From: Escherichia coli
Lineage (GTDB): Bacteria > Pseudomonadota > Gammaproteobacteria > Enterobacterales > Enterobacteriaceae
Direction: 5' to 3' (one strand)
Assembly: GCF_041248615.1 (NCBI RefSeq)
Contig: NZ_CP158426.1
DNA length: 64,000 nt
Below the pieces are notes generated by a model. It was given only the letters and a program-made list of their open reading frames with translations, ran no database searches and had not been told where the DNA came from. Below, piece after piece: positions 9,281 to 46,453 of this stretch. Position 1 is the first letter of the stretch. Every line of letters starts with the position of its first letter. A program made the position numbers and the translations under genes.

Positions 9281-11480
<2,200 letters not shown>

Positions 11481-11489
11481 GGACGGTAT

Positions 11490-11942
11490 ATGACTAACCT
11501 GTTTGTTCGTAGCGGAATTTCTTTTGTCGATCGTAGCGAAGTTTTAACCCATATCGGTACTGAGATGCTCGCGAAAGGTGTGGTTCATGATACCTGGCCA
11601 CAGGCATTAATTGCCAGAGAAGCAGAATTCCCTACCGGGATAATGCTTGAGCAGCACGCCATTGCAATACCGCATTGTGAGGCGATTCATGCTAAGTCGT
11701 CAGCCATTTATCTGTTAAGGCCAGCAAATAAAGTTCATTTTCAGCAAGCGGATGATGATAATGACGTGGCGGTATCGTTGGTTATTGCGTTGATTGTGGA
11801 AAATCCGCAGCAGCAATTGAAACTTTTACGCTGTTTATTTGGCAAGTTACAACAGCCCGATATCGTCGAGACACTAATCACTCTTCATGAAACCCAGTTA
11901 AAGGAATACTTCACAAAGTATGTTTTAGATTCAGACGAATAA
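11490..11942 (+). CDS. gatA: PTS galactitol-specific EIIA component
   Basis: 150 aa; position and recalled sequence in the gat operon. Confidence 0.9.
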   Translation: MTNLFVRSGISFVDRSEVLTHIGTEMLAKGVVHDTWPQALIAREAEFPTGIMLEQHAIAIPHCEAIHAKSSAIYLLRPANKVHFQQADDDNDVAVSLVIALIVENPQQQLKLLRCLFGKLQQPDIVETLITLHETQLKEYFTKYVLDSDE

Positions 11943-11972
11943 ATCCCTCTGTAACAATAAAAAGGACTATTT

Positions 11973-12257
11973 ATGAAACGCAAGATTATTGTCGCTTGCG
12001 GAGGCGCGGTTGCGACCTCTACGATGGCGGCGGAAGAAATTAAAGAGTTGTGTCAGAGTCATAATATTCCTGTTGAATTAATCCAGTGTCGGGTTAATGA
12101 AATAGAGACCTATATGGATGGTGTGCATTTGATATGTACTACCGCCAAAGTTGACCGTAGTTTTGGCGATATTCCGTTAGTTCACGGCATGCCTTTTGTT
12201 TCTGGTGTCGGTATCGAAGCATTACAAAATAAAATTCTGACTATCTTACAGGGGTGA
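11973..12257 (+). CDS. gatB: PTS galactitol-specific EIIB component
   Basis: 94 aa [27 protein letters not shown]; active-site Cys near the N-terminus. Confidence 0.9.
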
Positions 12258-21768: not shown

Positions 21769-23180
21769 TGCGCGCTCCTTTTTCGCCGCGAAATAGCTAC
21801 ATTTTGATGCGTATCGTTCGGCACTCTGGCAAAGATGAACGCCGGAAGGGCGATGATAAACGCCATGCTAAGCCAGGTGTACATAAAGACGGTTTGTGTG
21901 GTGCCGCTGTCGATGCTGACATGCTGCGAACCAAAAAGCCCCAGCAACAGCCCGGCGATGGTGACGCCGATACTCATCGACAATTGCATAATCATCGACA
22001 GCAGACTGTTGCCGCTGCTCGCCAGATTGTCCGGGAGATCTTTCAGCGTCAGGGTGTTCATGGAGGAGAAACGGGTCGAGTTGACCATCCCTTGTAAAAA
22101 CAGGACGAACGGCAAAACGTAGTACCAGCCCAGCAGAGCGGTAGTCATAAACAATAGGGTGACCAGCGACAGACCCAGCGTGGTCGCCACCAGCACCCGA
22201 CGGTAGCCAAAGCGATTCACTACCTGTACCACAATTCGCTTCATTCCCATGCTGCCGAGTACCATCGGGATCATCATCAGTCCGGCATGAAACGGCGAGA
22301 AACCGAGGCCAATTTGCAGGAAAACCGGTGTCATAAAGGGCAACATGCCACTGCCAATACGTCCGGCAAAGCTCCCCGCCAGGCCCAGCGAAAAGGTACG
22401 AGTGCGGAACAGTTTCAGACTGAACAGGGCGCGGTTGTTATTTCTGGCGTGCAGCAGATAAAGCACCAGTGCCACCACGCCAACTGCGACCAGGCCAGCA
22501 ATCGCCAGCGGCGATAAACCTGTACCTTTACTGCCGTCCAGCGCCAGGGTTAATACCGCCATGCCAATCGCCAGCAATAAAAAGCCGGAGAGATCGAAGC
22601 GCCGCGTCTGCATGGTGTAGTTCGGCATTAACATCAGTGTGGCGATCGCGCCGATAATTCCCACCGGAATGTTGATCAAAAAGATCCAGTGCCACGACGC
22701 GTACTCCACCAGCAGGCCGCCGAGCGCCGGACCGAGCAGCGGCCCGACCTGACCGGGTAACGTGACAAAGGTCATCGCCGCCATATATTGCTCGCGCGGT
22801 ACGATTTTCATCACCGTCAACCTGCCGACCGGCACCATCATCGCACCGCCAACGCCCTGTAACGCGCGTGCCAGCAACAGTTCGTTCAGCGTGCCGGAAA
22901 GCGCGCAAAACAGTGAACCGAGAGTAAACAGCACGATGGCGGTAAAGAAAATATTGCGCACGCCGACTTTGTCCGCCAGCCAGCCGCTGGCGGGCAGCAT
23001 CACCGCCACGGTCAGTACATAAGAGACAATGACCATGTGCATATGCAACGGACTTTCCCCGAGGCTTTGCGCCATTGAGGGAAGCGCGGTGTTGACGATG
23101 GTGGTGTCCAGCGACTGCATAAAGAAGCCGAAAGCCACAATCCACAATTGCCAGCGGGTGCTGTCGGGAAGATCTGTCAT
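21765..23180 (-). CDS. mdtD: MFS-type efflux transporter
   Basis: 471 aa polytopic protein; final gene of the mdt efflux part of the operon. Confidence 0.9.
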
Positions 23181-26100
23181 TTACTCGGTTACCGTTTGTT
23201 TAGGTTTACGCGAAAAACGCAGCCGCAGACGGTCGAAAAAGAGATACACCACCGGCGTGGTATACAGCGTCAGAAGCTGGCTCATTACCAGACCGCCGAC
23301 AATGGTGATCCCCAGGGGTTGGCGCAGCTCCGAGCCGTCACCGCCCGACAACACCAGCGGCAGCGCGCCAAACAGCGCCGCCAGGGTAGTCATCATAATC
23401 GGGCGAAAACGCAGCAGACAGGCCTGGAAAATAGCTTCCTGCGGCGTCAGGTTACCGTGCCGTTGGGCTTCAAGCGCAAAATCGACCATCATGATGGCGT
23501 TTTTCTTTACGATGCCGATTAATAGCATGATCCCTATCAGGGCGATTAGGCTGAACGGGGCATTGAACAGCTCCAGCGCCAGCAGCGCTCCAACGCCCGC
23601 CGAGGGCAGAGTGGAGAGAATCGTCAGCGGATGTACGTAACTCTCGTAAAGGATACCCAGCACGATATACACCGTGGCGATGGCGGCGATAATCAGGATC
23701 ACCTGCGAGTTCATCGTCTCCTGGAACACCTGCGCCGTGCCGGCAAAACTACCGCGCACCGTCGAAGGCACACCAAGCTGGGTCATTGCGCGATCGATCG
23801 CCGCACTGGCGTCCGAGAGCGATTTCCCGGTCGGCAGGTTGAACGAGATGGTCGAGGCTGCCGATAATCCCTGATGATTCACCGATAGTGGGGCATTCGC
23901 CGGTTGCCATTTAGCGAAATACGACAGCGGGATCGCTTTTCCTTCGTTATTGATAACGAACATTTTTTCCAGCGCGCTGATGTCCTGGGTATAACGCGGA
24001 TCCACTTCCATCACCACTTTGTACTGGTTCATTGGCTGATAAATGGTCGAGATTTGCCGCTGACCGAAGGCGTTATTTAACAGGCTGTTGGCGGCCTGTA
24101 CGTCGATTCCCAGCCGTGCCATGGTGTCGCGATCGTAAACCAGATTCATCTCCGCGCCGTTATCCTGCTGATCGGAGTTCACGTCCGCCAGTTCCGGCAA
24201 CGTCGCCAGTTTTTTGCGGATTTTCGGCTCCCATTCGCGCAGTGCCGCCAGGTCGTCGGATAACAACGTGTACTGGTAGCTGGCGTTCGACTGACGCCCA
24301 CCAACGCGAATATCCTGTACCGCCATCAGGAACAGATTCGCCCCCGGTTCTTTCGCCAGTTTTACGCGCAGACGGTCGATAATTTGCTGCGCCGTTTCGC
24401 TGCGTTCGTCGCGTGGCTTGAGGGTGATAAACATCATCCCACTGTTCACCCGCGAACCGCCGGTAAAGCCGGTGACATTATCCACCGCCGGATCGTCACG
24501 GATAATTTTCATAAAATCCTGCAACTTACCGCGCATCGCCTGAAACGAAATACTCTGATCCGCCTGTATCCCGCCCATCAACACGCCGGTGTCCTGCTCC
24601 GGGAAGAAGGTTTTCGGGATCGAGATATATAGCCAGATATTCAGCGCAATGGTGCCAAGCAGCACCACGCCCACCAGACGGGTATGATTGAGCACCCATT
24701 TCAGCGACTTGCCATAGCCTTGTTGCAGGGCTACCAACATGCGACCAAAACCACGCAGTCGCTTTTGCTCGCGCGGCTTGCTGGCTTTCAGCATCCAGCC
24801 ACACATCATCGGCGTTAGCGTCAGGGAAACCAGCAACGAAATACCAATGGCGACAGAAAGCGTCACGGCAAACTCGCGTAACAGTCGGCCCGGCAATCCG
24901 CCCATCAACAGCAGCGGCAGGAACACCGCCACCAGTGACAGACTCATCGACAGCACCGTAAAACCGACTTCGCGAGTACCTTGCAGTGCGGCTTGCAACG
25001 GTTTCATTCCCGCTTCCAGATGACGTGCAATGTTTTCCAGCACCACGATGGCGTCATCCACCACGAAACCAGTAGCAATGGTGAGCGCCATTAACGAAAG
25101 ATTATTGAGACTGAAACCGCACAGGTACATCGCCGCAAACGTACCAATCAGCGAAACCGGCACCGCAACGGCGGGAATAATAGTGGCGCGACCCGAGCGC
25201 AGGAATAAAAAGACCACCAGAATGACCAGCGCCACCGAGATAATCAGCGTTTGCTCGACTTCCTCCAGCGAGGCGCGAATAGTGGGGGAGCGATCCTGGG
25301 CAATTTGCAGATCAATCGCCGCCGGAATGGTCTCCTGCAACTCCGGTAATTTTGCCCGGATGCTGTCAACCGTCTGGATTATATTGGCTTCCGGCAGCTT
25401 GCGGATCATCAGCAAAATAGCCGGTTTGGCGTTGGTCATCCCGGCGTTACGTACATCTTGTACAGAGTCGGTCACCGTCGCCACATCGCCCAGACGAACC
25501 GCGCCGCCGTTGTTGTAATGAATAATCAACGGCTGATATTCAGCGGCGGTTTTCAGTTCATCGTTAGTCTGGATCTGCCAGCGGTGAGTATCATCTTCCA
25601 GCGCCCCCTGCGGTTTACGCACGTTGGCATTGCTGATGGCGGTGCGCACATCGTCCAGCGACACGCCCTGATTAAACAGCGCCTGCGGATTCAGCCCGAC
25701 GCGTACGGCGGGCAGTGAGCTGCCGCCGACATCGACATCACCAACACCGTCGATTTGCGAAATCGTCGGAGCCAGCTGCGTCGAGGCGAAATCGTACAGT
25801 TCACCCTGCGAATAAGTATCGGATGTCAGCGTGAGGATCATTATTGGCGCATCCGACGGGTTCGCTTTGCGATAGGTCGGACGGCTTGGCATCCCGCTGG
25901 GCAGCAAACTTTGCGCGGCGTTGATCGCCGCTTGCACATCGCGCGCTGCGCCGTTGATATCGCGGTCAAAATCAAACTGCAAAATAATGCGCGTGCTGCC
26001 GAGCGAACTGCTGGAGGTCATTTCACTGACCCCGGCAATGCGCCCAAGTGAGCGCTCCAGCGGCGTGGCAACGGAAGACGCCATTGTTTCTGGTGACGCA

Positions 26101-30856: not shown

Positions 30857-30999
30857 GAAACGGGAAAGCCCCTCCCGAGGAAGGGGCCTTAAATAAGGAA
30901 AGGGTCATGATGAAGCTACTCATCATCGTGGTGCTCTTAGTGATTAGCTACCCAGCATACTAAGACTACCAGGGCGGGGGAAACCCCGCTCTACCCTCA
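30857..30999 (-). ncRNA. Sib antisense RNA (SibB-like), copy 1
   Basis: Minus-strand promoter TTGACA-17nt-TACTTT (31034..31006) and hairpin GCCCCT/AGGGGC followed by U-run near 30857-30887; transcript fully overlaps the ibs ORF. Ends are approximate. Confidence 0.6.
30907..30963 (+). CDS. Type I toxin Ibs (18 aa, MMKLLIIVVLLVISYPAY), IbsB-like
   Basis: Short hydrophobic ORF with SD AAGGAAAGGG upstream; matches recalled Ibs family; too short for the ORF track. Confidence 0.75.
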   Translation: MMKLLIIVVLLVISYPAY

Positions 31000-31184
31000 C
31001 TCCTGAAAGTATGCCTTCACGATAAGATTGTCAATCTGCAGGCTTTGCAGTCTGCGATCCTGCCAGCAAATATTCTTTGCGAGACGTTACGCAATAATCA
31101 CACTGGAAACTATTTTATCCGCAAGTCAGCGATAGACTGCATACAGGGCGAAAGGAGGTAAGCCGACGATTTCAGCGGGACGCT

Positions 31185-31327
31185 GAAACGGGAAAGCCCC
31201 TCCCGAGGAAGGGGCCTTAAATAAGGAAAGGGTCATGATGAAGATACTCATCATCGTGGTGCTCTTAGTGATTAGCTACCCAGCATACTAAGACTACCAG
31301 GGCGGGGGAAACCCCGCTCTACCCTCA
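31185..31327 (-). ncRNA. Sib antisense RNA, copy 2
   Basis: Same promoter and terminator as copy 1, shifted by 328 bp. Confidence 0.6.
31235..31291 (+). CDS. Type I toxin Ibs (18 aa, MMKILIIVVLLVISYPAY), IbsB-like, second copy
   Basis: Same unit as copy 1 shifted by 328 bp; one substitution (L4I). Confidence 0.75.
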   Translation: MMKILIIVVLLVISYPAY

Positions 31328-31513
31328 CTCCTGAAAGTATGCCTTCACGATAAGATTGTCAATCCGCAGGCTTTGCAGTCTGCGATCCTGCCAGCAAATA
31401 TTCTTTGCGAGTCGTTACGCAATAATCACAGAGGAAACTATTTTGGTCACGCGTTAGCGATAGACTGCATTCAGGGCGAAAGGAGGTAAGCCGACGATTT
31501 CAGCGGGACGCTG

Positions 31514-31662
31514 AAACGGGAAACCCTCTCCCGGAGAAGAGGGCTTTTAATAAGGAAAGGGTTATGATGAAGCACGTCATCATACTGGAGATACTCTTAG
31601 TGATTAGCTTCCAGGCTTACTAAGAACACCAGGGGGAGGGAGAAACCTCTCCCTAACCCTCA
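31514..31662 (-). ncRNA. Sib antisense RNA (SibA-like), copy 3
   Basis: Minus-strand promoter TTGACA-17nt-TAATTT; terminator hairpin CCCTCT/AGAGGG plus U-run. Ends are approximate. Confidence 0.55.
31564..31623 (+). CDS. Type I toxin Ibs (19 aa, MMKHVIILEILLVISFQAY), IbsA-like
   Basis: Diverged third unit; SD AAGGAAAGGG conserved. Confidence 0.7.
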   Translation: MMKHVIILEILLVISFQAY

Positions 31663-31843
31663 CTCCTGAAATTATGTCACTCCGCCCTTAGTGTCAATCG
31701 ACGGCTCTCCGTTCTTGCGAGGCGAATAGCAAAATTTTCTGCGCCGCCGGGCCTAATTCTGAAAGTTTCTTCGTTTGCTCTTATTTCATTATTGCAATCG
31801 GTATGATACCGGGCCTCAATAATTCTCTAAGAAAGGATTTCTT

Positions 31844-32503
31844 ATGAGCGAACAAATCACGTTTGCCACCAGCGATTTTGCCAGTAACCCGGAACCACGT
31901 TGCCCCTGCATTTTGCTGCTGGATGTTTCTGGTTCTATGAACGGTAGACCTATTAATGAACTTAACGCCGGATTGGTTACCTTTCGCGATGAGCTGCTTG
32001 CCGATTCGCTGGCCTTAAAAAGAGTGGAACTCGGCATTGTGACGTTCGGCCCGGTGCATGTGGAACAACCCTTTACCAGCGCCGCTAATTTTTTCCCGCC
32101 CATCCTGTTTGCCCAGGGCGATACACCAATGGGCGCTGCCATTACCAAAGCCCTGGATATGGTAGAGGAGCGGAAACGTGAGTATCGTGCAAATGGTATT
32201 TCGTATTATCGCCCGTGGATTTTCCTGATCACCGATGGCGCTCCAACCGATGAGTGGCAGGCTGCCGCCAACAAAGTGTTTCAGGGGGAAGAAGATAAGA
32301 AGTTTGCCTTCTTTTCCATCGGTGTTCAGGGGGCGGATATGAAGACTTTGGCACAAATCAGCGTTCGTCAGCCTTTGCCACTGCAGGGATTACAATTCCG
32401 TGAACTGTTTAGCTGGTTATCCAGTTCGCTGCGTTCGGTTTCCCGCTCCACGCCGGGAACGGAAGTTGTGCTGGAAGCGCCAAAAGGCTGGACGTCAGTG
32501 TGA
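31844..32503 (+). CDS. yegL: von Willebrand factor A (vWA) domain protein, TerY-like
   Basis: 219 aa; MIDAS motif DVSGSM at residues about 27-32 ([12 protein letters not shown]) and later threonine/aspartate positions (LITDGAPTD). Confidence 0.85.
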
Positions 32504-33261
32504 GCTGGCGTCTGGTCTATGCATCAACCGTTGGAACGTCGCACATCAGCGCGGACTTGCCTTGCCAGGATGCCTGCCAGATGCAGGTTGCCTGGTTAAA
32601 TGACCAGCAGCCATTATTGTCGGTATTTGTCGCCGATGGCGCAGGTAGCGTCTCGCAGGGTGGCGAAGGTGCGGAGCTTGCCGTTAATGAAGCGATGGCT
32701 TATATGATGCAAAAATTGCAGGGCGGGGAATTGGGGCTTAATGATGTCCTCGCAACGGATATTGTGCTGACCGTTCGTCAGCGACTTTTTGCCGAGGCGG
32801 AAGCCAAAGAATTAGCTGTTCGCGATTTTGCCTGCACGTTTATGGGATTGATTTCATCAGCTAATGGCACCCTGATTATGCAGATTGGCGATGGCGGCGT
32901 GGTGGTAGATTTGGGGCACGGTCTGCAACTGCCGCTCACGCCGATGGTAGGTGAATATGCCAATATGACACACTTCATTACTGATGAAGATGCCGTTTCC
33001 AGACTGGAAACTTTCACCAGCACTGAGCGTGCGCATAAAGTTGCAGCATTTACGGATGGTATCCAGCGGCTGGCGTTAAATATGCTGGATAATTCTCCCC
33101 ATGTGCCTTTCTTTACCCCGTTTTTCAATGGGCTGGCGTCAGCAACGCAGGAACAACTCGATTTATTACCTGAATTGTTAAAGCAGTTTTTGTCCAGCCC
33201 GGCGGTAAACGAGCGTACGGATGATGATAAAACGTTGGCACTGGCGCTGTGGTTACCATGA
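32500..33261 (+). CDS. yegK: PP2C-family protein Ser/Thr phosphatase
   Basis: 253 aa; GTG start overlapping the yegL stop (GTGA); metal-binding Asp/Gly-rich motif ([30 protein letters not shown]). Confidence 0.85.
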
Positions 33262-35198
33262 AACCCACTTTATATACTGCTACTGGTGAGTGCGTTACGC
33301 CAGGCTGTGAACTGGGCAAAGGTGGCGAAGGCGCGGTTTATGATATCGAGGAGTTTGTCGATAGCGTCGCCAAGATTTATCACACGCCGCCACCCGCCTT
33401 AAAACAGGACAAACTTGCCTTTATGGCTGCGACAGCTGACGCACAGTTGCTGAATTATGTCGCCTGGCCGCAGGCAACGCTTCACGGTGGACGAGGCGGA
33501 AAAGTTATCGGTTTTATGATGCCAAAAGTTTCTGGTAAAGAACCGATTCATATGATCTATAGCCCGGCACATCGTCGCCAGAGTTACCCTCATTGTGCGT
33601 GGGATTTTCTACTCTATGTTGCGCGTAATATTGCTTCATCTTTTGCTACGGTTCACGAGCACGGGCATGTCGTGGGTGACGTAAACCAGAACAGCTTTAT
33701 GGTAGGCCGTGACAGCAAAGTGGTGTTGATTGATAGCGACTCCTTTCAGATTAACGCCAACGGCACACTGCATTTATGCGAAGTCGGCGTGTCGCATTTT
33801 ACGCCGCCAGAGCTGCAAACCTTGCCATCATTTGTCGGCTTTGAACGCACCGCGAATCACGATAATTTTGGCCTTGCGTTGCTGATTTTTCACGTCTTGT
33901 TTGGTGGTCGGCATCCTTATTCCGGTGTACCGCTTATCTCTGATGCGGGTAATGCGCTGGAGACGGATATTGCCCATTTCCGTTATGCCTACGCGTCAGA
34001 TAATCAGCGACGTGGTTTAAAACCGCCGCCACGATCTATTCCGCTGTCGATGTTACCGGGCGATGTTGAAGCCATGTTTCAGCAGGCATTCACGGAAAGT
34101 GGCGTGGCAACCGCGCGTCCGACGGCAAAAGCGTGGGTAGCGGCACTTGATTTACTACGCCAACAGTTAAAGAAATGTACCGTTTCGGCAATGCATGTTT
34201 ACCCCGGTCATTTGACTGACTGCCCGTGGTGTGCGCTGGATAATCAAGGCGTTATCTATTTTATTGATCTCGGCGAAGAGGTCATTACCACCGGCGGTGA
34301 TTTTGTGCTGGCGAAAGTCTGGGCAATGGTGATGGCGTCAGTAGCACCACCAGCATTGCAACTGCCATTACCCGATCATTTCCAACCGACTGGCAGGCCG
34401 CTTCCTTTAGGCCTGTTACGGCGTGAATACATCATTCTGATTGAGATCGCACTGTCAGCGTTATCGCTGCTGCTTTGCGGCCTTCAGGTAGAACCGCGTT
34501 ATATCATTTTGGTTCCCGTGCTGGCGGCTATCTGGATTATTGGCAGCCTGACAAGCAAAGCGTACAAAGCAGAAATCCAGCAACGTCGTGAGGCGTTTAA
34601 TCGCGCGAAAATGGACTATGACCATTTAGTAAGCCAGATCCAACGGCTGGGCGGGCTGGAAGGTTTTATCGCCAAACGGGCGATGATCGAAAAAATGAAG
34701 GACGAAATTCTCGGGTTACCGGAAGAGGAGAAACGCGCTCTGGCAGCACTTCATGACACTGCAAGGGAACGGCAGAAGCAGAAGTTTCTGGAGGGATTTT
34801 TTATTGATGTTGCCTCTATTCCCGGCGTTGGCCCTGCGCGTAAAGCGGCGTTACGGTCTTTTGGTATTGAAACAGCCGCAGATGTTACCCGTCGTGGCGT
34901 TAAGCAAGTGAAAGGGTTTGGCGACCATCTGACCCAGGCGGTTATCGACTGGAAAGCGAGTTGTGAACGCCGTTTTGTGTTCAGGCCGAACGAAGCGGTA
35001 ACGCCTGCAGACAGACAAGCGGTACTGACTAAAATGGCCGCCAAACGACATCGGCTGGAATCGACGTTGACTGTCGGCGCGACAGAGTTGCAGCGATTCC
35101 GCCTTCAAGCTCCAGCACGGACCATGCCGTTGATGGAACCGTTACGTCAGGCGGCAGAAAAACTGGCTCAGGCGCAGGCTGAATTAAGCCGTTGCTGA
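33258..35198 (+). CDS. yegI: Atypical eukaryotic-like Ser/Thr protein kinase with membrane segment and C-terminal HhH-like region
   Basis: ATG overlaps the yegK stop (ATGA); alternative GTG at 33249. Gly-rich loop GKGGEGAVY, candidate Lys in VAKIYH, divergent catalytic loop HVVGDVNQNS, DSD in place of DFG. Confidence 0.8.
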   Translation: MKPTLYTATGECVTPGCELGKGGEGAVYDIEEFVDSVAKIYHTPPPALKQDKLAFMAATADAQLLNYVAWPQATLHGGRGGKVIGFMMPKVSGKEPIHMIYSPAHRRQSYPHCAWDFLLYVARNIASSFATVHEHGHVVGDVNQNSFMVGRDSKVVLIDSDSFQINANGTLHLCEVGVSHFTPPELQTLPSFVGFERTANHDNFGLALLIFHVLFGGRHPYSGVPLISDAGNALETDIAHFRYAYASDNQRRGLKPPPRSIPLSMLPGDVEAMFQQAFTESGVATARPTAKAWVAALDLLRQQLKKCTVSAMHVYPGHLTDCPWCALDNQGVIYFIDLGEEVITTGGDFVLAKVWAMVMASVAPPALQLPLPDHFQPTGRPLPLGLLRREYIILIEIALSALSLLLCGLQVEPRYIILVPVLAAIWIIGSLTSKAYKAEIQQRREAFNRAKMDYDHLVSQIQRLGGLEGFIAKRAMIEKMKDEILGLPEEEKRALAALHDTARERQKQKFLEGFFIDVASIPGVGPARKAALRSFGIETAADVTRRGVKQVKGFGDHLTQAVIDWKASCERRFVFRPNEAVTPADRQAVLTKMAAKRHRLESTLTVGATELQRFRLQAPARTMPLMEPLRQAAEKLAQAQAELSRC

Positions 35199-35210
35199 GC
35201 CAGTTTTCAA

Positions 35211-36563
35211 TTAACGAAACACCACTTCCGCCCAGCGTGCCAGCCCGGCGGTGACGGAGCCAAAGTCATCGCCGCCTGCAATCGGAATGCCCGGCAACTG
35301 TTCTGCCAGCGCCTTTTTAATCAGCGGTGAACGGGCGCTACCGCCGGTCAGGTAGATAACGTCCGGTTTTTCCTGGGCGTTATCCAGGGCCAGTTGCACC
35401 TGTTCCAGAATCCGCGCCAGTGGCTGGCTGAGGGCGCTTTCCAGCCCTTGCTGGCTAATCAGCGTAGCCAGTTCATCGCTGATAAACGGCAGTGAGGCGC
35501 GGGTTTCCGCTACGCTTGAAAGCGCAATTTTGCTCTCTTCTGCGCTACGTACCAGGCGATAGCTTAAACGCTGACGCCAGACTTTCTGTAACAGGGCCAC
35601 TTTTTCCGGTTCGCGGGCATCGCGTACCAGATCGTTAAGCAGACGACCGTTGGCACTACTGTAGAAATCACTTTGCGCAGGGACGTCGTTGATGGCAACC
35701 GCATTCCACCACGGCAGAATCGGCAGGGCGATGCCTTTTTCGGTTTCGCCCCCCATGCCCAGTAACGGCATCAGGTTTTTAAACGCCAGTGCGATATCCA
35801 GATCGTTACCGCCAATACGGCAACCACTGTGACCCAGCAGGCTGGCTTCACGATCGAGACGCGAACGCCACTGCGGCCCCATCAGCAGCAATGAACAGTC
35901 AGTCGTACCACCGCCGATATCCACCACCAGCACCCGTTTTTCTTCCTGCAAGGTGGCTTCGTAATCCAGCCCAGCCGCGACCGGCTCGTACTGGAATACC
36001 ACATCCTTAAACCCGGCACGCTTCGCCGCGCGTTCCAGAATCCCCTGCGCCTGGGTGTTTGCTTCATCGCCGCCAAGCCCCTGGAAGTTGATAGGGCGAC
36101 CAATTACCGCCTGAGTAATCGCATCCGGCAGCTGTGCCTGCGCCTGCTGGCGAATGTGCAACATCATTGCGCAGACCAGATCCTCAAACAGCGCTACCTG
36201 CTGCGGTTTTAAGCCGCTGGCACCGAGGAACGATTTTGGTGATTTCACAAACCACACTTCTTCTGGATCATCAATGTACTGTGCCAGTGAGGAAAGACCG
36301 AACTGCACGCTTTTCGCCGTAACATCGATATCTTCTTCGCGGTTATAACGAATCGCCCGACGCAACAGCGCCTGCGTTTCATCGTCGTCTGCCGGAACAT
36401 CATGATGGCGGTACAGCCATTCGCTTACCGCTTCACGCGTTGGCGCGCAAAGCATTGAAGGCAGCAGCGTGCTGTCGTTTTCCATTTTCAGTAATTGCGG
36501 CTTACCGTCGCGCATGACCGCCACTGAACAGTTTGCTGTACCGTAATCAAAACCAATAAACAC
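35211..36563 (-). CDS. yegD: Hsp70/actin-like ATPase-fold protein (DnaK paralog)
   Basis: ORF 35211..36626; proposed GTG start at 36563 gives 450 aa beginning (V)FIGFDYGTANCSVAVM; Hsp70 phosphate-binding motifs (VVDIGGGTTDCS). Confidence 0.8.
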   Translation of the reverse strand: MFIGFDYGTANCSVAVMRDGKPQLLKMENDSTLLPSMLCAPTREAVSEWLYRHHDVPADDDETQALLRRAIRYNREEDIDVTAKSVQFGLSSLAQYIDDPEEVWFVKSPKSFLGASGLKPQQVALFEDLVCAMMLHIRQQAQAQLPDAITQAVIGRPINFQGLGGDEANTQAQGILERAAKRAGFKDVVFQYEPVAAGLDYEATLQEEKRVLVVDIGGGTTDCSLLLMGPQWRSRLDREASLLGHSGCRIGGNDLDIALAFKNLMPLLGMGGETEKGIALPILPWWNAVAINDVPAQSDFYSSANGRLLNDLVRDAREPEKVALLQKVWRQRLSYRLVRSAEESKIALSSVAETRASLPFISDELATLISQQGLESALSQPLARILEQVQLALDNAQEKPDVIYLTGGSARSPLIKKALAEQLPGIPIAGGDDFGSVTAGLARWAEVVFR

Positions 36564-44708: not shown

Positions 44709-46292
44709 TCACACCTCGTACTCCATCTCGCCATCCTTACGCAGCGGTATAATCTGCACCTTCTGCACGCGATGGCTTTCCACCTGCAACGTTTTGAGCA
44801 AGTAATCCCCTACCTGAACTTCTTCGCCAGGTTTTGGAATACGCTGCAAATATTCCATCAGCAGCCCGGCAATGGTGTGATATTCGCGTTTCTCATCCAG
44901 CGGTAGCGGCACATATTGCACCAGATCTTCCAGTGGCATATGACCATTCGCCGTCCAGGAACCGTCGGCGTTTTTCTGAATATCATGGCGGGCGTCGATC
45001 TCTTCCACTTCGTTCGGTAAGTTACCGGCAATGGTTTCAGTGACGTCACTTAATGTCACAATCCCTTCCACCGAGCCAAACTCATCCACTACAAAAGCAA
45101 AGTGCGTGCGGGCATTACGGAACTGCTCCAGGGCAGGTAACAACGGCAAGGTTTCCGGGAACACCAGCGGCTGGCGAATCAACACCCGCAGGTTGAGCGG
45201 TTCGCCGCGCAGAGACTGTTGTAGCAGGTCGATAACGTGAACAACACCGAGCAAATCTTCTGCGTCATCACCGTCGGTAACCACCAACCGCGTATGCTGA
45301 TTTCGCTCCAGCAACTGGCGGATTTCTTCTTCCGGCGCGTTGAGATCGATATGCTCAATATCGTGGCGCGACGTCATAATGCTGCTGACGGTACGCTGGT
45401 TAAGATTAAGTACCCGCTCAATCATCCGCCGTTCCTGCGGATTAAAGATCTGCTGGTTACCATGATCCACCAGCATGGACGCGGTTTCGGCGTCCAGTTC
45501 CGCATCTTCTTTTTGCCCGCTAAGCAGGCGCATTACCGCTTCGGTAGTCCGCTGGCGCAGCGTCTGGTTAGCGGAAAGAAAACGTCGCCGGTTAAAGATA
45601 GCCAACTGATTGAGCGCCTCGATCATCACCGAGAAACCAATAGCAGCGTACAGGTAGCCTTTCGGAATGACGAAGCCGAAACCTTCTGCCACCAGGCTAA
45701 AGCCAATCATCAACAGGAAGCTTAAGCAGAGAATAACGATCGTCGGGTGACTGTTAACAAATTGCGTTAACGGCTTGCTGGCCATCAACATCAGGCTAAT
45801 AGCGATAACGACGGCGGCCATCATGACCAGTAAATGGTCGACCATCCCGACGGCGGTAATCACCGAGTCGAGTGAGAAGATGGCGTCCAGTACCACAATT
45901 TGTGTCACCACCCCCCAGAACTTCGCACCTTTGCGTTGTGTGGGGTTATTGCTGTCTTTCCCTTCCAGCCGTTCGTTCAGCTCCATCGTGGCTTTGAACA
46001 ACAGGAAGAAACCACCAAACAGCATGATTAAGTCGCGGGCGCTAAAGGTAAACGAGCGAAAGCTGAATAGCGGTTGTGTCAGGGTGACCAGCCAGGAGAT
46101 TGACGCCAGCAGTAACAGGCGCATTAACATCGCCAGCAGCAGCCCGGTAACCCGTGCGCGGTCGCGCTGCTTCGGCGGTAGTTTTTCGGCGAGGATGGCA
46201 ATAAAGACCAGGTTATCAATGCCGAGGACCAGTTCGATCACAATCAGCGTGATTAACCCGGCCCAGATAGACGGATCGGCAATCCATTCCAT
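44709..46292 (-). CDS. yegH: TerC-family membrane domain fused to CBS pair and CorC/HlyC transporter-associated domain
   Basis: ORF 44709..46358 trimmed to [34 protein letters not shown] (527 aa). Confidence 0.8.
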
Positions 46293-46453
46293 AGTAAGTA
46301 CAAAACCTATTCGTTGTATGACAAATGTCACAATTCGATCATGGATAAATCGGGGCAAAAATGCAATGTTGCAGCACTATTTATCTCATATTATTTGAGG
46401 TTTATAACCTCACATTATCCCTGAATTAAAAGTGGTAATAATAAAACATTATT

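Follow-up and report, generated by a model that had tools for sequence, protein, structure and literature searches.

The yegL-pphC-yegI operon of Escherichia coli, a TerY-P-like cassette of vWA protein, phosphatase and kinase by architecture

A stretch of 64,000 nucleotides of the Escherichia coli contig NZ_CP158426.1 (assembly GCF_041248615.1), hereafter the window, carries between positions 31844 and 35198 three genes of the same (+) strand, which encode a vWA protein, a PP2C-like phosphatase and an atypical Ser/Thr kinase. These are yegL (31844-32503, 219 amino acids), pphC, formerly yegK (32500-33261, 253 amino acids from a GTG start), and yegI (33258-35198, 646 amino acids from ATG), and a scan for open reading frames placed all three exactly where a preliminary description of the window had put them. 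The GTG of pphC lies within the yegL stop (GTGA, 32500-32503, +) and the ATG of yegI within the pphC stop (ATGA, 33258-33261, +), both overlaps being read directly from the sequence; for yegI, an alternative in-frame GTG start at 33249 is also possible. An AGGA Shine-Dalgarno sequence (31834-31837, +) precedes the yegL ATG by 6 nt, while direct reading finds no obvious one in front of the pphC GTG or of the yegI ATG. Since such a site is present only ahead of yegL and the following genes start within stop codons, the pattern fits translational coupling, and we infer that the three genes are translated in this way. The description as a single tightly packed operon is borne out by the stop/start overlaps and by the same arrangement across distant taxa.

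The arrangement is not a product of chance, since a megablast search with positions 31600-35300 recovered the 3.7 kb stretch from 5417 of the 5426 complete E. coli genomes, in 5402 of them (99.6%) with at least 80% coverage, and since the gene order recurs elsewhere. In RefSeq, the three products are named 'vWA domain-containing protein' (yegL), 'protein-serine/threonine phosphatase PphC' and 'protein kinase YegI'. They are the same genes as the YegI, PphC and YegL of E. coli already studied (Rajagopalan, Nagle, Dworkin J Bacteriol 2018; Rajagopalan, Dworkin FEBS Lett 2020), from which nothing essential differs. The preliminary description thus correctly recognised genes that were already annotated and in part characterised, and is not a discovery. 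Its statement that substrate, trigger and physiological role are poorly defined holds, while the enzymology, of which it was unaware, has already been published (10.1101/303594, 10.1101/819920).

The assignment of YegL as a vWA protein of the MIDAS (metal-ion-dependent adhesion site) type is confirmed by Pfam (VWA 2.2e-9, VWA_2 4.2e-7) and by the motif D27-V-S-G-S-M32, which belongs to a complete MIDAS made up of D27, S29, S31, T94 and D131, residues that do not vary among 51 bacterial and archaeal cassettes. The C-terminus carries a further motif, W191-L-S-x-S195...S200, whose W, S and S are likewise constant in these 51 loci. In a tblastn comparison with the ter-operon TerY genes of IncHI2 plasmids, YegL gave E=4e-16 with 28-36% identity, and in a joint alignment with the three TerY of the IncHI2 ter cluster the MIDAS, W191, S195 and S200 were invariant. 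To judge from these alignments, YegL is a real TerY relative, with a homologous vWA domain. The ter-operon genes differ from it in their setting, since they sit among terW, terX and TerD-family genes without kinase or phosphatase, and one TerY paralogue has a C-terminal, cysteine-rich TerY-C domain which YegL lacks. The serine-rich C-terminal helix of YegL (W191-L-S-x-S-...-S-x-S) was considered as a triad-specific phospho-acceptor; this idea is weakened, and stays a weak one, because the motif is also invariant in the ter-operon TerY, which have no kinase partner. YegL is the most constrained member of the triad, with a median identity to the E. coli protein of 65% in non-Escherichia loci, compared with 41% for PphC and 39% for YegI; these medians, like the linkage figures given below, rest on the best 80 loci of at least 546 genomes. 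The homologue search with YegL itself as the query was dominated by near-identical E. coli variants.

For the second gene, the earlier assignment as a PP2C phosphatase agrees both with the profile match (Pfam PP2C_2, 1.8e-50 over residues 11-220) and with the published activity, YegK having been renamed PphC after its characterisation as a Mn2+-dependent PP2C-like phosphatase which also dephosphorylates YegI (10.1101/303594; J Bacteriol 2018). Fifteen homologues share the acidic metal-site motifs QD, DGAGS, GD, DG and DD without exception. Among E. coli lineages, the region diverges most in the 5' half of pphC (32501-33000), where the identity to other lineages is 89-95% compared with about 97% in the flanks, and where both synonymous (dS 0.19-0.33) and non-synonymous divergence (dN 0.03-0.05) are elevated. 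The pattern suggests old allelic variants or recombination, not positive selection. The hotspot matches the published identity of 92% between the PphC of K-12 and REL606, two enzymes whose kinetics were reported to differ.

The kinase domain of YegI covers residues 1-302 (33258-34163, +), as delimited by alignment, AlphaFold2 modelling, Foldseek and a profile match to the PDB. It contains a Gly-rich loop (G20-V27, G20-KGGEGAVY), K39, the loop H137-VVGDVNQNS146 with the catalytic D141, the motif D159-S-D161 and S162; thus, the motifs quoted in the preliminary description (DVSGSM of YegL; GKGGEGAVY, the Lys, HVVGDVNQNS and DSD of YegI) are all present. Among 80 aligned full-length homologues, which share 33-62% identity with E. 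coli YegI, the residues G20-V27, K39, D141, D159, D161 and S162 are invariant, and the family consensus reads GDVNQGN and D[CS]DS, the E. coli catalytic loop having NS where most members have GN. E. coli YegI itself gives no Pkinase match in Pfam; 63 of the 80 homologues do so at E<=1e-3, and the family profile recovers TTK, RSK, BRAF and PknE from the PDB at E of about 1e-6. The AlphaFold2 model (pLDDT, or predicted local distance difference test score, 94.1; predicted template modelling score, pTM, 0.81) gave target-normalised TM-scores (template modelling) of 0.65-0.73 to PknB, CaMKII and BRAF in Foldseek. The bilobal fold, the Gly-rich loop and the catalytic Lys and Asp of a Hanks-type kinase are all found in YegI, while the canonical HRDxKxxN loop and the DFG motif are not, their places being taken by H-VVGDVNQNS and DSD.

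Published biochemistry is in accordance with this picture. YegI was reported as an active, Mn2+-preferring kinase whose activity is abolished by K39D as well as by D141N, and also lost when DSD is changed to DFG or DSG; autophosphorylation occurs in trans, with second-order kinetics, at S153, S160 and S162 of the activation loop (10.1101/819920; FEBS Lett 2020). The VGDxxQxS loop, the DSD motif and, for REL606 and O157:H7, the ATGA overlap had been described in the same work (10.1101/819920). Profile, fold and published activity agree on a kinase whose catalytic loop is divergent and which has DSD for DFG, as had been proposed, and the vWA, PP2C and kinase folds are all upheld by Pfam, by the family profile and by the AlphaFold2 model of YegI. 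With the Hanks-type pairs PknB/PstP and PrkC/PrpC, YegI and PphC share the bilobal fold, the catalytic Lys and Asp, autophosphorylation of the activation loop and a cognate PP2C in the operon. YegI differs from those kinases in having no extracellular sensor, only a short hairpin loop, in its VGDVNQNS and DSD motifs instead of HRDxKxxN and DFG, in a cytoplasmic helix-hairpin-helix (HhH) tail and in an obligatory vWA partner.

The C-terminal half of YegI, overlooked in the preliminary description, is the most informative part of the protein for its mechanism. Directly after the kinase domain, alignment and model delimit a putative zinc-knuckle-like beta-hairpin (residues 304-330; 34167-34247, +), in which C307-x5-H313-x8-C322-P-W324-C325 is invariant in the 80 homologues and the strands 304-306 and 314-316 are modelled with a pLDDT above 90; the C-x5-H-x8-CPWC pattern is thus a predicted zinc knuckle, although the Pfam family TerY_C is matched by none of the 80 family members. 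Within the stretch 34176-34232 of this hairpin, the invariant sequence D-C-P-W-C resembles the I-C-P-W-C of the TerY-C domain of an IncHI2 TerY (locus L119 in our numbering, 11021-12058), with no profile-level match between them. A membrane hairpin of two hydrophobic helices follows (residues ~389-440; 34422-34577, +), placed by the model at residues 389-408 and from 418 on, with Kyte-Doolittle means over 19-residue windows of 2.31 and 2.07 in E. coli; across the family, the best segment has a median of 2.26. PhoA-LacZ fusions place YegI in the inner membrane, which it crosses twice, with its N- and C-terminus both on the cytoplasmic side (10.1101/819920). Beyond the hairpin, the protein is predicted to continue as a cytoplasmic coiled-coil stalk (residues ~441-511; 34578-34790, +) that leads to a tandem HhH module (residues 515-571, IPGVGPARKAALRSFGIETAADV ... 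VKGFGDHLTQAVIDW; 34800-34970, +), as indicated by Pfam, alignment and model. In this module G525, S534, G536, T539, A540, D542, G553, G555 and W565 are near-invariant among the 80 homologues; the Pfam family HHH_5 is matched at E=0.0025 by E. coli YegI, a marginal value, and at E<=0.1 by 26 of the 80. Relatives bear database names such as 'helix-hairpin-helix domain-containing protein' and 'DNA-binding helix-hairpin-helix protein with protein kinase domain'. Finally, a long C-terminal helix (residues 583-645; 35004-35198, +, stop codon included), which in the model returns along the stalk, closes the open reading frame. The predicted zinc knuckle, membrane hairpin, coiled coil and tandem HhH are what the present analysis adds to the description of YegI. 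In the portions available of 10.1101/303594 and 10.1101/819920, neither the zinc knuckle and the HhH nor the distribution and genomic company of the cassette are discussed.

Within E. coli, an identity of at least 99% over the triad was found in only 14 of the 5426 genomes, reaching 100% with WP4-S18-ESBL-07. For the whole window (tested over 12001-55500), the identity to K-12, O157:H7 and three other strains is typically 96-98%, and, as the window is equally divergent throughout, the strain represents a divergent E. coli lineage and the ~96% identity of the triad is a property of that lineage, the dip in pphC excepted. The dN/dS ratios within the species are 0.047 for yegL, 0.147 for pphC and 0.126 for yegI, whose kinase core shows a dN near 0 at a dS of ~0.05-0.27. 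By these substitution rates, the three genes are under purifying selection; positive or diversifying selection, which is expected of many immune genes, is rejected, dN/dS being at most 0.15 in all of them. Moreover, the reading frames are intact in more than 5400 E. coli genomes, and the operon is kept across Escherichia species at 91-96% identity. In 1924 of the 5426 genomes (35%), an AT-rich insert of ~0.7 kb with yegJ (DUF2314) on the opposite strand replaces ~57 nt at the pphC/yegI junction (33255-33312 of the window, compared with 22985-23711 of the K-12 locus, L002). In this form PphC ends in WAE or WTE instead of WLP, YegI starts with MKTNIK... and has 648 amino acids, and the ATGA coupling is lost. 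The window carries the uninterrupted form of the REL606/O157 type, without yegJ, whose insertion in K-12 strains has been published (10.1101/819920).

These data bear on the possibility that the operon is a silent relic, that is, a horizontally acquired, transcriptionally silent and functionless set of genes kept by drift. Such a view would fit the reports that YegI and PphC are barely expressed in laboratory culture, where their authors could identify neither a condition with robust expression nor a substrate (10.1101/303594, 10.1101/819920). It would also fit the disruption by yegJ in 1924 of 5426 genomes and the NS of the E. coli catalytic loop in place of the GN of most family members. In the 146 nt upstream of yegL neither a consensus sigma-70 promoter nor any other convincing site was seen, and promoter and terminator scans of the region gave sites no commoner than in shuffled sequence. 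Nevertheless, dN/dS values of 0.05-0.15, frames intact in more than 5400 genomes, a kinase core almost without amino-acid change and retention across Escherichia are opposed to it, and both enzymes are active in vitro (10.1101/303594, 10.1101/819920). The relic is already largely refuted by the selection data, and we consider it very improbable.

Outside the species, a phmmer search of 1.84 billion cluster representatives returned 9554 clusters at E<=1e-3 and 3187 at E<=1e-30, with the full YegI architecture of ~646 amino acids kept in more than 100 clusters down to 35% identity. The identity of the relatives is 91-100% in Escherichia and then drops to ~62% in Klebsiella and ~60% in Betaproteobacteria. 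In a scan of one genome per species, a relative was present in at least 546 genomes, and the best 80 loci cover Proteobacteria, Frankia, Georgenia, Paenibacillus, Planctomycetota, Acidobacteria, Chlorobiaceae, Synergistaceae and Methanoregula/Methanomicrobiales. All three genes are present in 75 of these 80 loci, the other five being contigs that end upstream; the compact order vWA, PP2C, kinase is found in 73 of the 75 complete loci, and the spacing at the vWA/PP2C junction is zero or negative in 46. Gene order, sizes and the same or near overlaps are shared with Klebsiella, Betaproteobacteria, Actinobacteria, Firmicutes and archaea. Furthermore, 82 plasmids carry the cassette (46 of these are conjugative), pQBR103 and further Pseudomonas megaplasmids among them, and in Chromobacterium (L009) it adjoins a Tn7-like transposition module. 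The vWA-PP2C-kinase cassette is, therefore, an obligate, horizontally mobile unit, found from bacteria to methanogenic archaea. A phage origin was considered and rejected, with one weak match among 50,697 phage genomes. As for further components, yegD accompanies the triad only in Escherichia, and its candidacy as a fourth member was rejected, a YegD homologue being found in no non-Escherichia locus; neither is there a conserved effector gene downstream of the kinase, where the neighbours differ by lineage (TetR-like regulators, a secreted Cys-rich protein in Burkholderia, JetA, LigA and others).

Two groups of distant relatives deserve separate mention. The archaeal ones, in Methanoregula/Methanomicrobiales (L092, L096, L100-L102, L104, L105), include five loci with the full triad, where YegL is ~60% identical to the E. 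coli protein and PphC and YegI ~32-36%; in L096 the contig ends early and the vWA gene is missing. They offer a striking example of transfer between domains in which the three genes have been conserved to very different degrees. The matches in IMG/VR are mostly very large contigs of uncertain nature (200-420 kb; L018, L019, L022, L024, L026, L027, L034), which may be huge phages or misclassified host DNA. They carry vWA and kinase homologues, with PP2C detected in most, and their kinases align with YegI over the kinase and zinc-knuckle part only (~residues 13-332). In L018, an IS200/IS605-like TnpB gene (Cas12f-like, 1.7e-26) lies between the phosphatase and the kinase.

The genomic company of the cassette in other organisms points towards defence, known defence genes lying within 10 kb in seven of nine annotated non-Escherichia neighbourhoods. 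In Klebsiella spallanzanii (L006) these are a GmrSD-like gene (PADLOC Orf5, 2e-213), type I restriction-modification and SymE; in Piscinibacter (L008), JetB (3e-93), a PD-T4-1-like/PDC-S36 gene, SNase and BrxR; in Chromobacterium, PifA (1e-118) and AbiH beside the Tn7-like module. Two metagenomic loci have type I restriction-modification with Mrr (L011) and E1/E2/JAB genes with a resolvase (L013), an NCBI genome (L035) has GmrSD, PglW-like and PglX-like genes, and in an assembly from a sequencing run (L037) Mrr follows directly after the kinase. No defence genes were found near the remaining two (L010, L012). A second sample consisted of the nearest large open reading frame beside the triad in 20 further loci, searched with PADLOC at E<=1e-5. 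Seven of these neighbours gave matches, namely JetA (3e-184), GajA (3e-215), PDC-S01 (9e-176), PDC-S26, a BrxH-like helicase, PDC-M28C and LigA, of which the PDC-M28C match is weak and that of LigA spurious, owing to its BRCT domain. Compared with none of the ten genes flanking the E. coli locus, 7 of 20 gives p ~0.04 in a one-sided, hand-computed Fisher test, and p is 0.11 if only the five convincing matches are counted.

In a wider frame, the cassette has to be compared with the TerY-P triads, a concept reportedly introduced by Anantharaman, Iyer and Aravind in 2012, for which metal or stress sensing was the role first proposed. The architecture that defines them, a vWA domain with an intact MIDAS, a PP2C domain and a Ser/Thr kinase in conserved linkage, is present here. 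With the triad in the sense of the CoCoNuT type II/III-A description (eLife 2024), it shares the vWA, PP2C and kinase operon, and with the triad of comparative genomics the association with restriction and DNA-processing genes; the zinc-binding element which follows the kinase domain in such triads may have its counterpart in the invariant C307/H313/C322/C325 hairpin, although Pfam TerY_C is matched in 0 of 80 homologues. It differs in what comes after the putative zinc knuckle of YegI, namely a membrane hairpin, then a coiled coil and tandem HhH, and in that the cassette stands alone, embedded neither in McrBC/CoCoNuT nor in type VII secretion-like clusters. Protection against phages has been reported for other members of the group: against T7-like phages according to papers citing Gao 2020, and, for a variant of Pseudomonas aeruginosa, against Autographiviridae with most cells surviving (Sci Adv 2024). 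The kinases of other TerY-P triads have a predicted nucleic-acid-binding C-terminus, described as an OB (oligonucleotide/oligosaccharide-binding) fold or a zinc ribbon. With the Gao 2020 and P. aeruginosa systems, our cassette has in common the three domain types, the stand-alone organisation and a putative nucleic-acid-binding C-terminus of the kinase; the OB fold of the Gao 2020 kinase tail is not found in YegI, where the membrane hairpin, coiled coil and HhH stand instead. The preliminary description as TerY-P-like holds, by the architecture and by the TerY homology (E=4e-16). The TerY-P models of PADLOC do not recognise the locus; nor do they match more distant YegL-type proteins or other triads of this type. 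On these comparisons, yegL-pphC-yegI is TerY-P-like by architecture and forms a branch separate from the phage-validated subfamily represented in PADLOC.

The kinship with TerY also raises the question of a sensor of metal or tellurite-type stress, in which the MIDAS of YegL, the putative zinc knuckle of YegI and the Mn2+-dependent enzymes would detect a metal or xenobiotic signal and turn a stress response on or off. This is improbable in our judgement. The homology of YegL with the TerY of the tellurite operon, with MIDAS and C-terminal motif conserved, speaks for it, as do the preference of YegI and PphC for Mn2+ (10.1101/819920, 10.1101/303594) and the TerC-family gene yegH ~9.5 kb downstream (44709-46358). 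Nevertheless, metal dependence is generic for kinases, PP2C and vWA proteins, the proximity of yegH is not conserved, no terZABCDE, terW or terX is linked to the cassette in E. coli or in the nine annotated neighbourhoods, and the TerY genes of the plasmid ter cluster adjoin no kinase or phosphatase.

With moderate confidence, we read yegL-pphC-yegI as a domesticated TerY-P-type switch that would sense or respond to invading DNA or phage. The reading draws on the obligate mobile cassette, the defence-gene neighbours elsewhere, the phage precedent of TerY-P triads and the finding that E. coli overproducing YegL or YegI suffers more endogenous damage to its DNA and more mutation (10.1101/354589). 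The operon would be a self-contained, reversible Ser/Thr phosphorylation switch, horizontally acquired by E. coli and kept as a core operon. The HhH tip on its coiled-coil stalk may bind nucleic acid near the membrane, for instance DNA entering the cell, and this binding, or the clustering that results from it, would gather the kinase heads and lead to their trans-autophosphorylation. Active YegI would then phosphorylate host or invader proteins, with YegL acting through its MIDAS as an adaptor, substrate or effector, and with PphC keeping the system off and resetting the switch.

A number of observations weigh against this proposal. The E. coli copy behaves as a core housekeeping gene set and unlike accessory defence genes, being fixed in position in 99.6% of genomes and flanked not by a defence island but by mdtABCD-baeSR, yegD, alkA and dgcE, the nearest elements of such a kind being the Sib/Ibs repeats; none of its ten flanking genes matches PADLOC. 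The defence-gene company of orthologous cassettes is suggestive but not rigorous, given the small sample and the single-genome control, and neither a nuclease nor any other obvious effector is encoded by the cassette. The HhH module, a putative DNA-binding element, has marginal Pfam support for E. coli YegI (E=0.0025). As to the PADLOC models, YegL matches TerY (PDLC02224) only partially, at E=0.013 and 13 bits, PphC gives no match even at E<=10, though a PP2C model (PDLC02222) exists, and YegI has no TerY-P match, only weak ones to the kinases PD-T4-6 (2.3e-4) and MkoA (5.4e-4). E. coli B and K-12 are, moreover, the standard permissive hosts for T-phages, T7 included. The intact coupled operon is present in E. 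coli B (REL606) and the yegJ-interrupted form in K-12 (10.1101/819920, 10.1101/303594), so that, at native expression, the operon would not block those T-phages. Its expression is reported as barely detectable under laboratory conditions (10.1101/819920, 10.1101/303594, PMC13232886), and the literature searched contained no paper tying yegI to a phage phenotype.

Going further, cassettes of this type might constitute a distinct TerY-P immune subtype across bacteria and archaea, one missed by defence-finder models, which would sense nucleic acid through the HhH at the inner face of the membrane, use phosphorylation instead of a nuclease, have the vWA protein as its central adaptor or effector and form a near-universal, normally silent core set in E. 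coli. This extension is possible, and we put it forward only tentatively.

Core-genome status and purifying selection could also belong to an endogenous signalling system, in which the genes, domesticated in Escherichia, have lost any link to invaders and act on proteins of the host during stationary phase or when its envelope or DNA is under stress, YegI phosphorylating cellular substrates, PphC reversing this and YegL serving as the adaptor. About 100 E. coli proteins with phospho-Ser or phospho-Thr lack an assigned kinase (10.1101/819920), and the perturbation of DNA integrity upon overproduction of YegL or YegI (10.1101/354589) would agree with such a role as well. In addition, the yegJ product binds RNase E, and overexpression of yegJ induces yegD (PMC13232886, 2026), a hint of local regulatory wiring. 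Set against this are the lack of a known phenotype or substrate, the sporadic distribution and the occurrence on plasmids and in defence islands elsewhere, which are unlike a housekeeping regulator, the 35% of E. coli genomes that tolerate the disruption of coupling by yegJ, and the absence of linkage to yegD outside Escherichia. On balance, host signalling seems somewhat unlikely.

The interest of the locus lies in the physiological role of the single eukaryotic-like kinase/PP2C pair of E. coli and in a possible, unrecognised and very widespread TerY-P branch. If the response to invading DNA or phage is true, nearly every E. coli, including B with the intact and K-12 with the yegJ-broken form, would contain an unrecognised immune module, and a function would be gained for a very large family (3187 clusters at E<=1e-30, genomes of at least 546 species, archaea included), which would be a compact model for phosphorylation-based immunity without a dedicated nuclease. 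If host signalling is true instead, the operon would be a rare case of a mobile defence-type cassette turned into core physiology.

In the window, the order of the genes around the operon is mdtB, mdtA (-), three Sib/Ibs repeats, yegL, pphC, yegI, yegD (-), alkA and dgcE. The repeats, which fill part of the interval between mdtA and yegL, are three tandem type I toxin-antitoxin units of Sib antitoxin RNA and Ibs toxin (30892-31034, 31220-31362 and 31549-31697, all -; Rfam SIB_RNA, 141-146 bits), and their copy number varies by strain, with two in K-12 and TUM13773, three in O157 and four in AHB6 and GF66.1. At the other end, the stops of yegI and of the convergent Hsp70-like yegD lie 12 nt apart; as no terminator-like hairpin was detected in this gap (35199-35210), the convergent transcripts would collide or overlap. 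The gene yegH (44709-46358, -) is named a TerC-family membrane protein in RefSeq, and its linkage to a TerY-like yegL, not seen in other genomes, is probably a coincidence. In Burkholderia, Paraburkholderia and Caballeronia (L076, L099, L109, L115), a fourth gene overlaps the kinase stop by 4 nt. Its product (L076, 11932-12591; L099, 11875-12540), which has no match in Pfam, PADLOC or NCBIfam, comprises ~220 amino acids, with a signal-peptide-like N-terminus and a repeated W-x-C-x2-G-[YF]-x3-G-x2-C motif, and might serve the membrane kinase as a periplasmic partner specific to this lineage.

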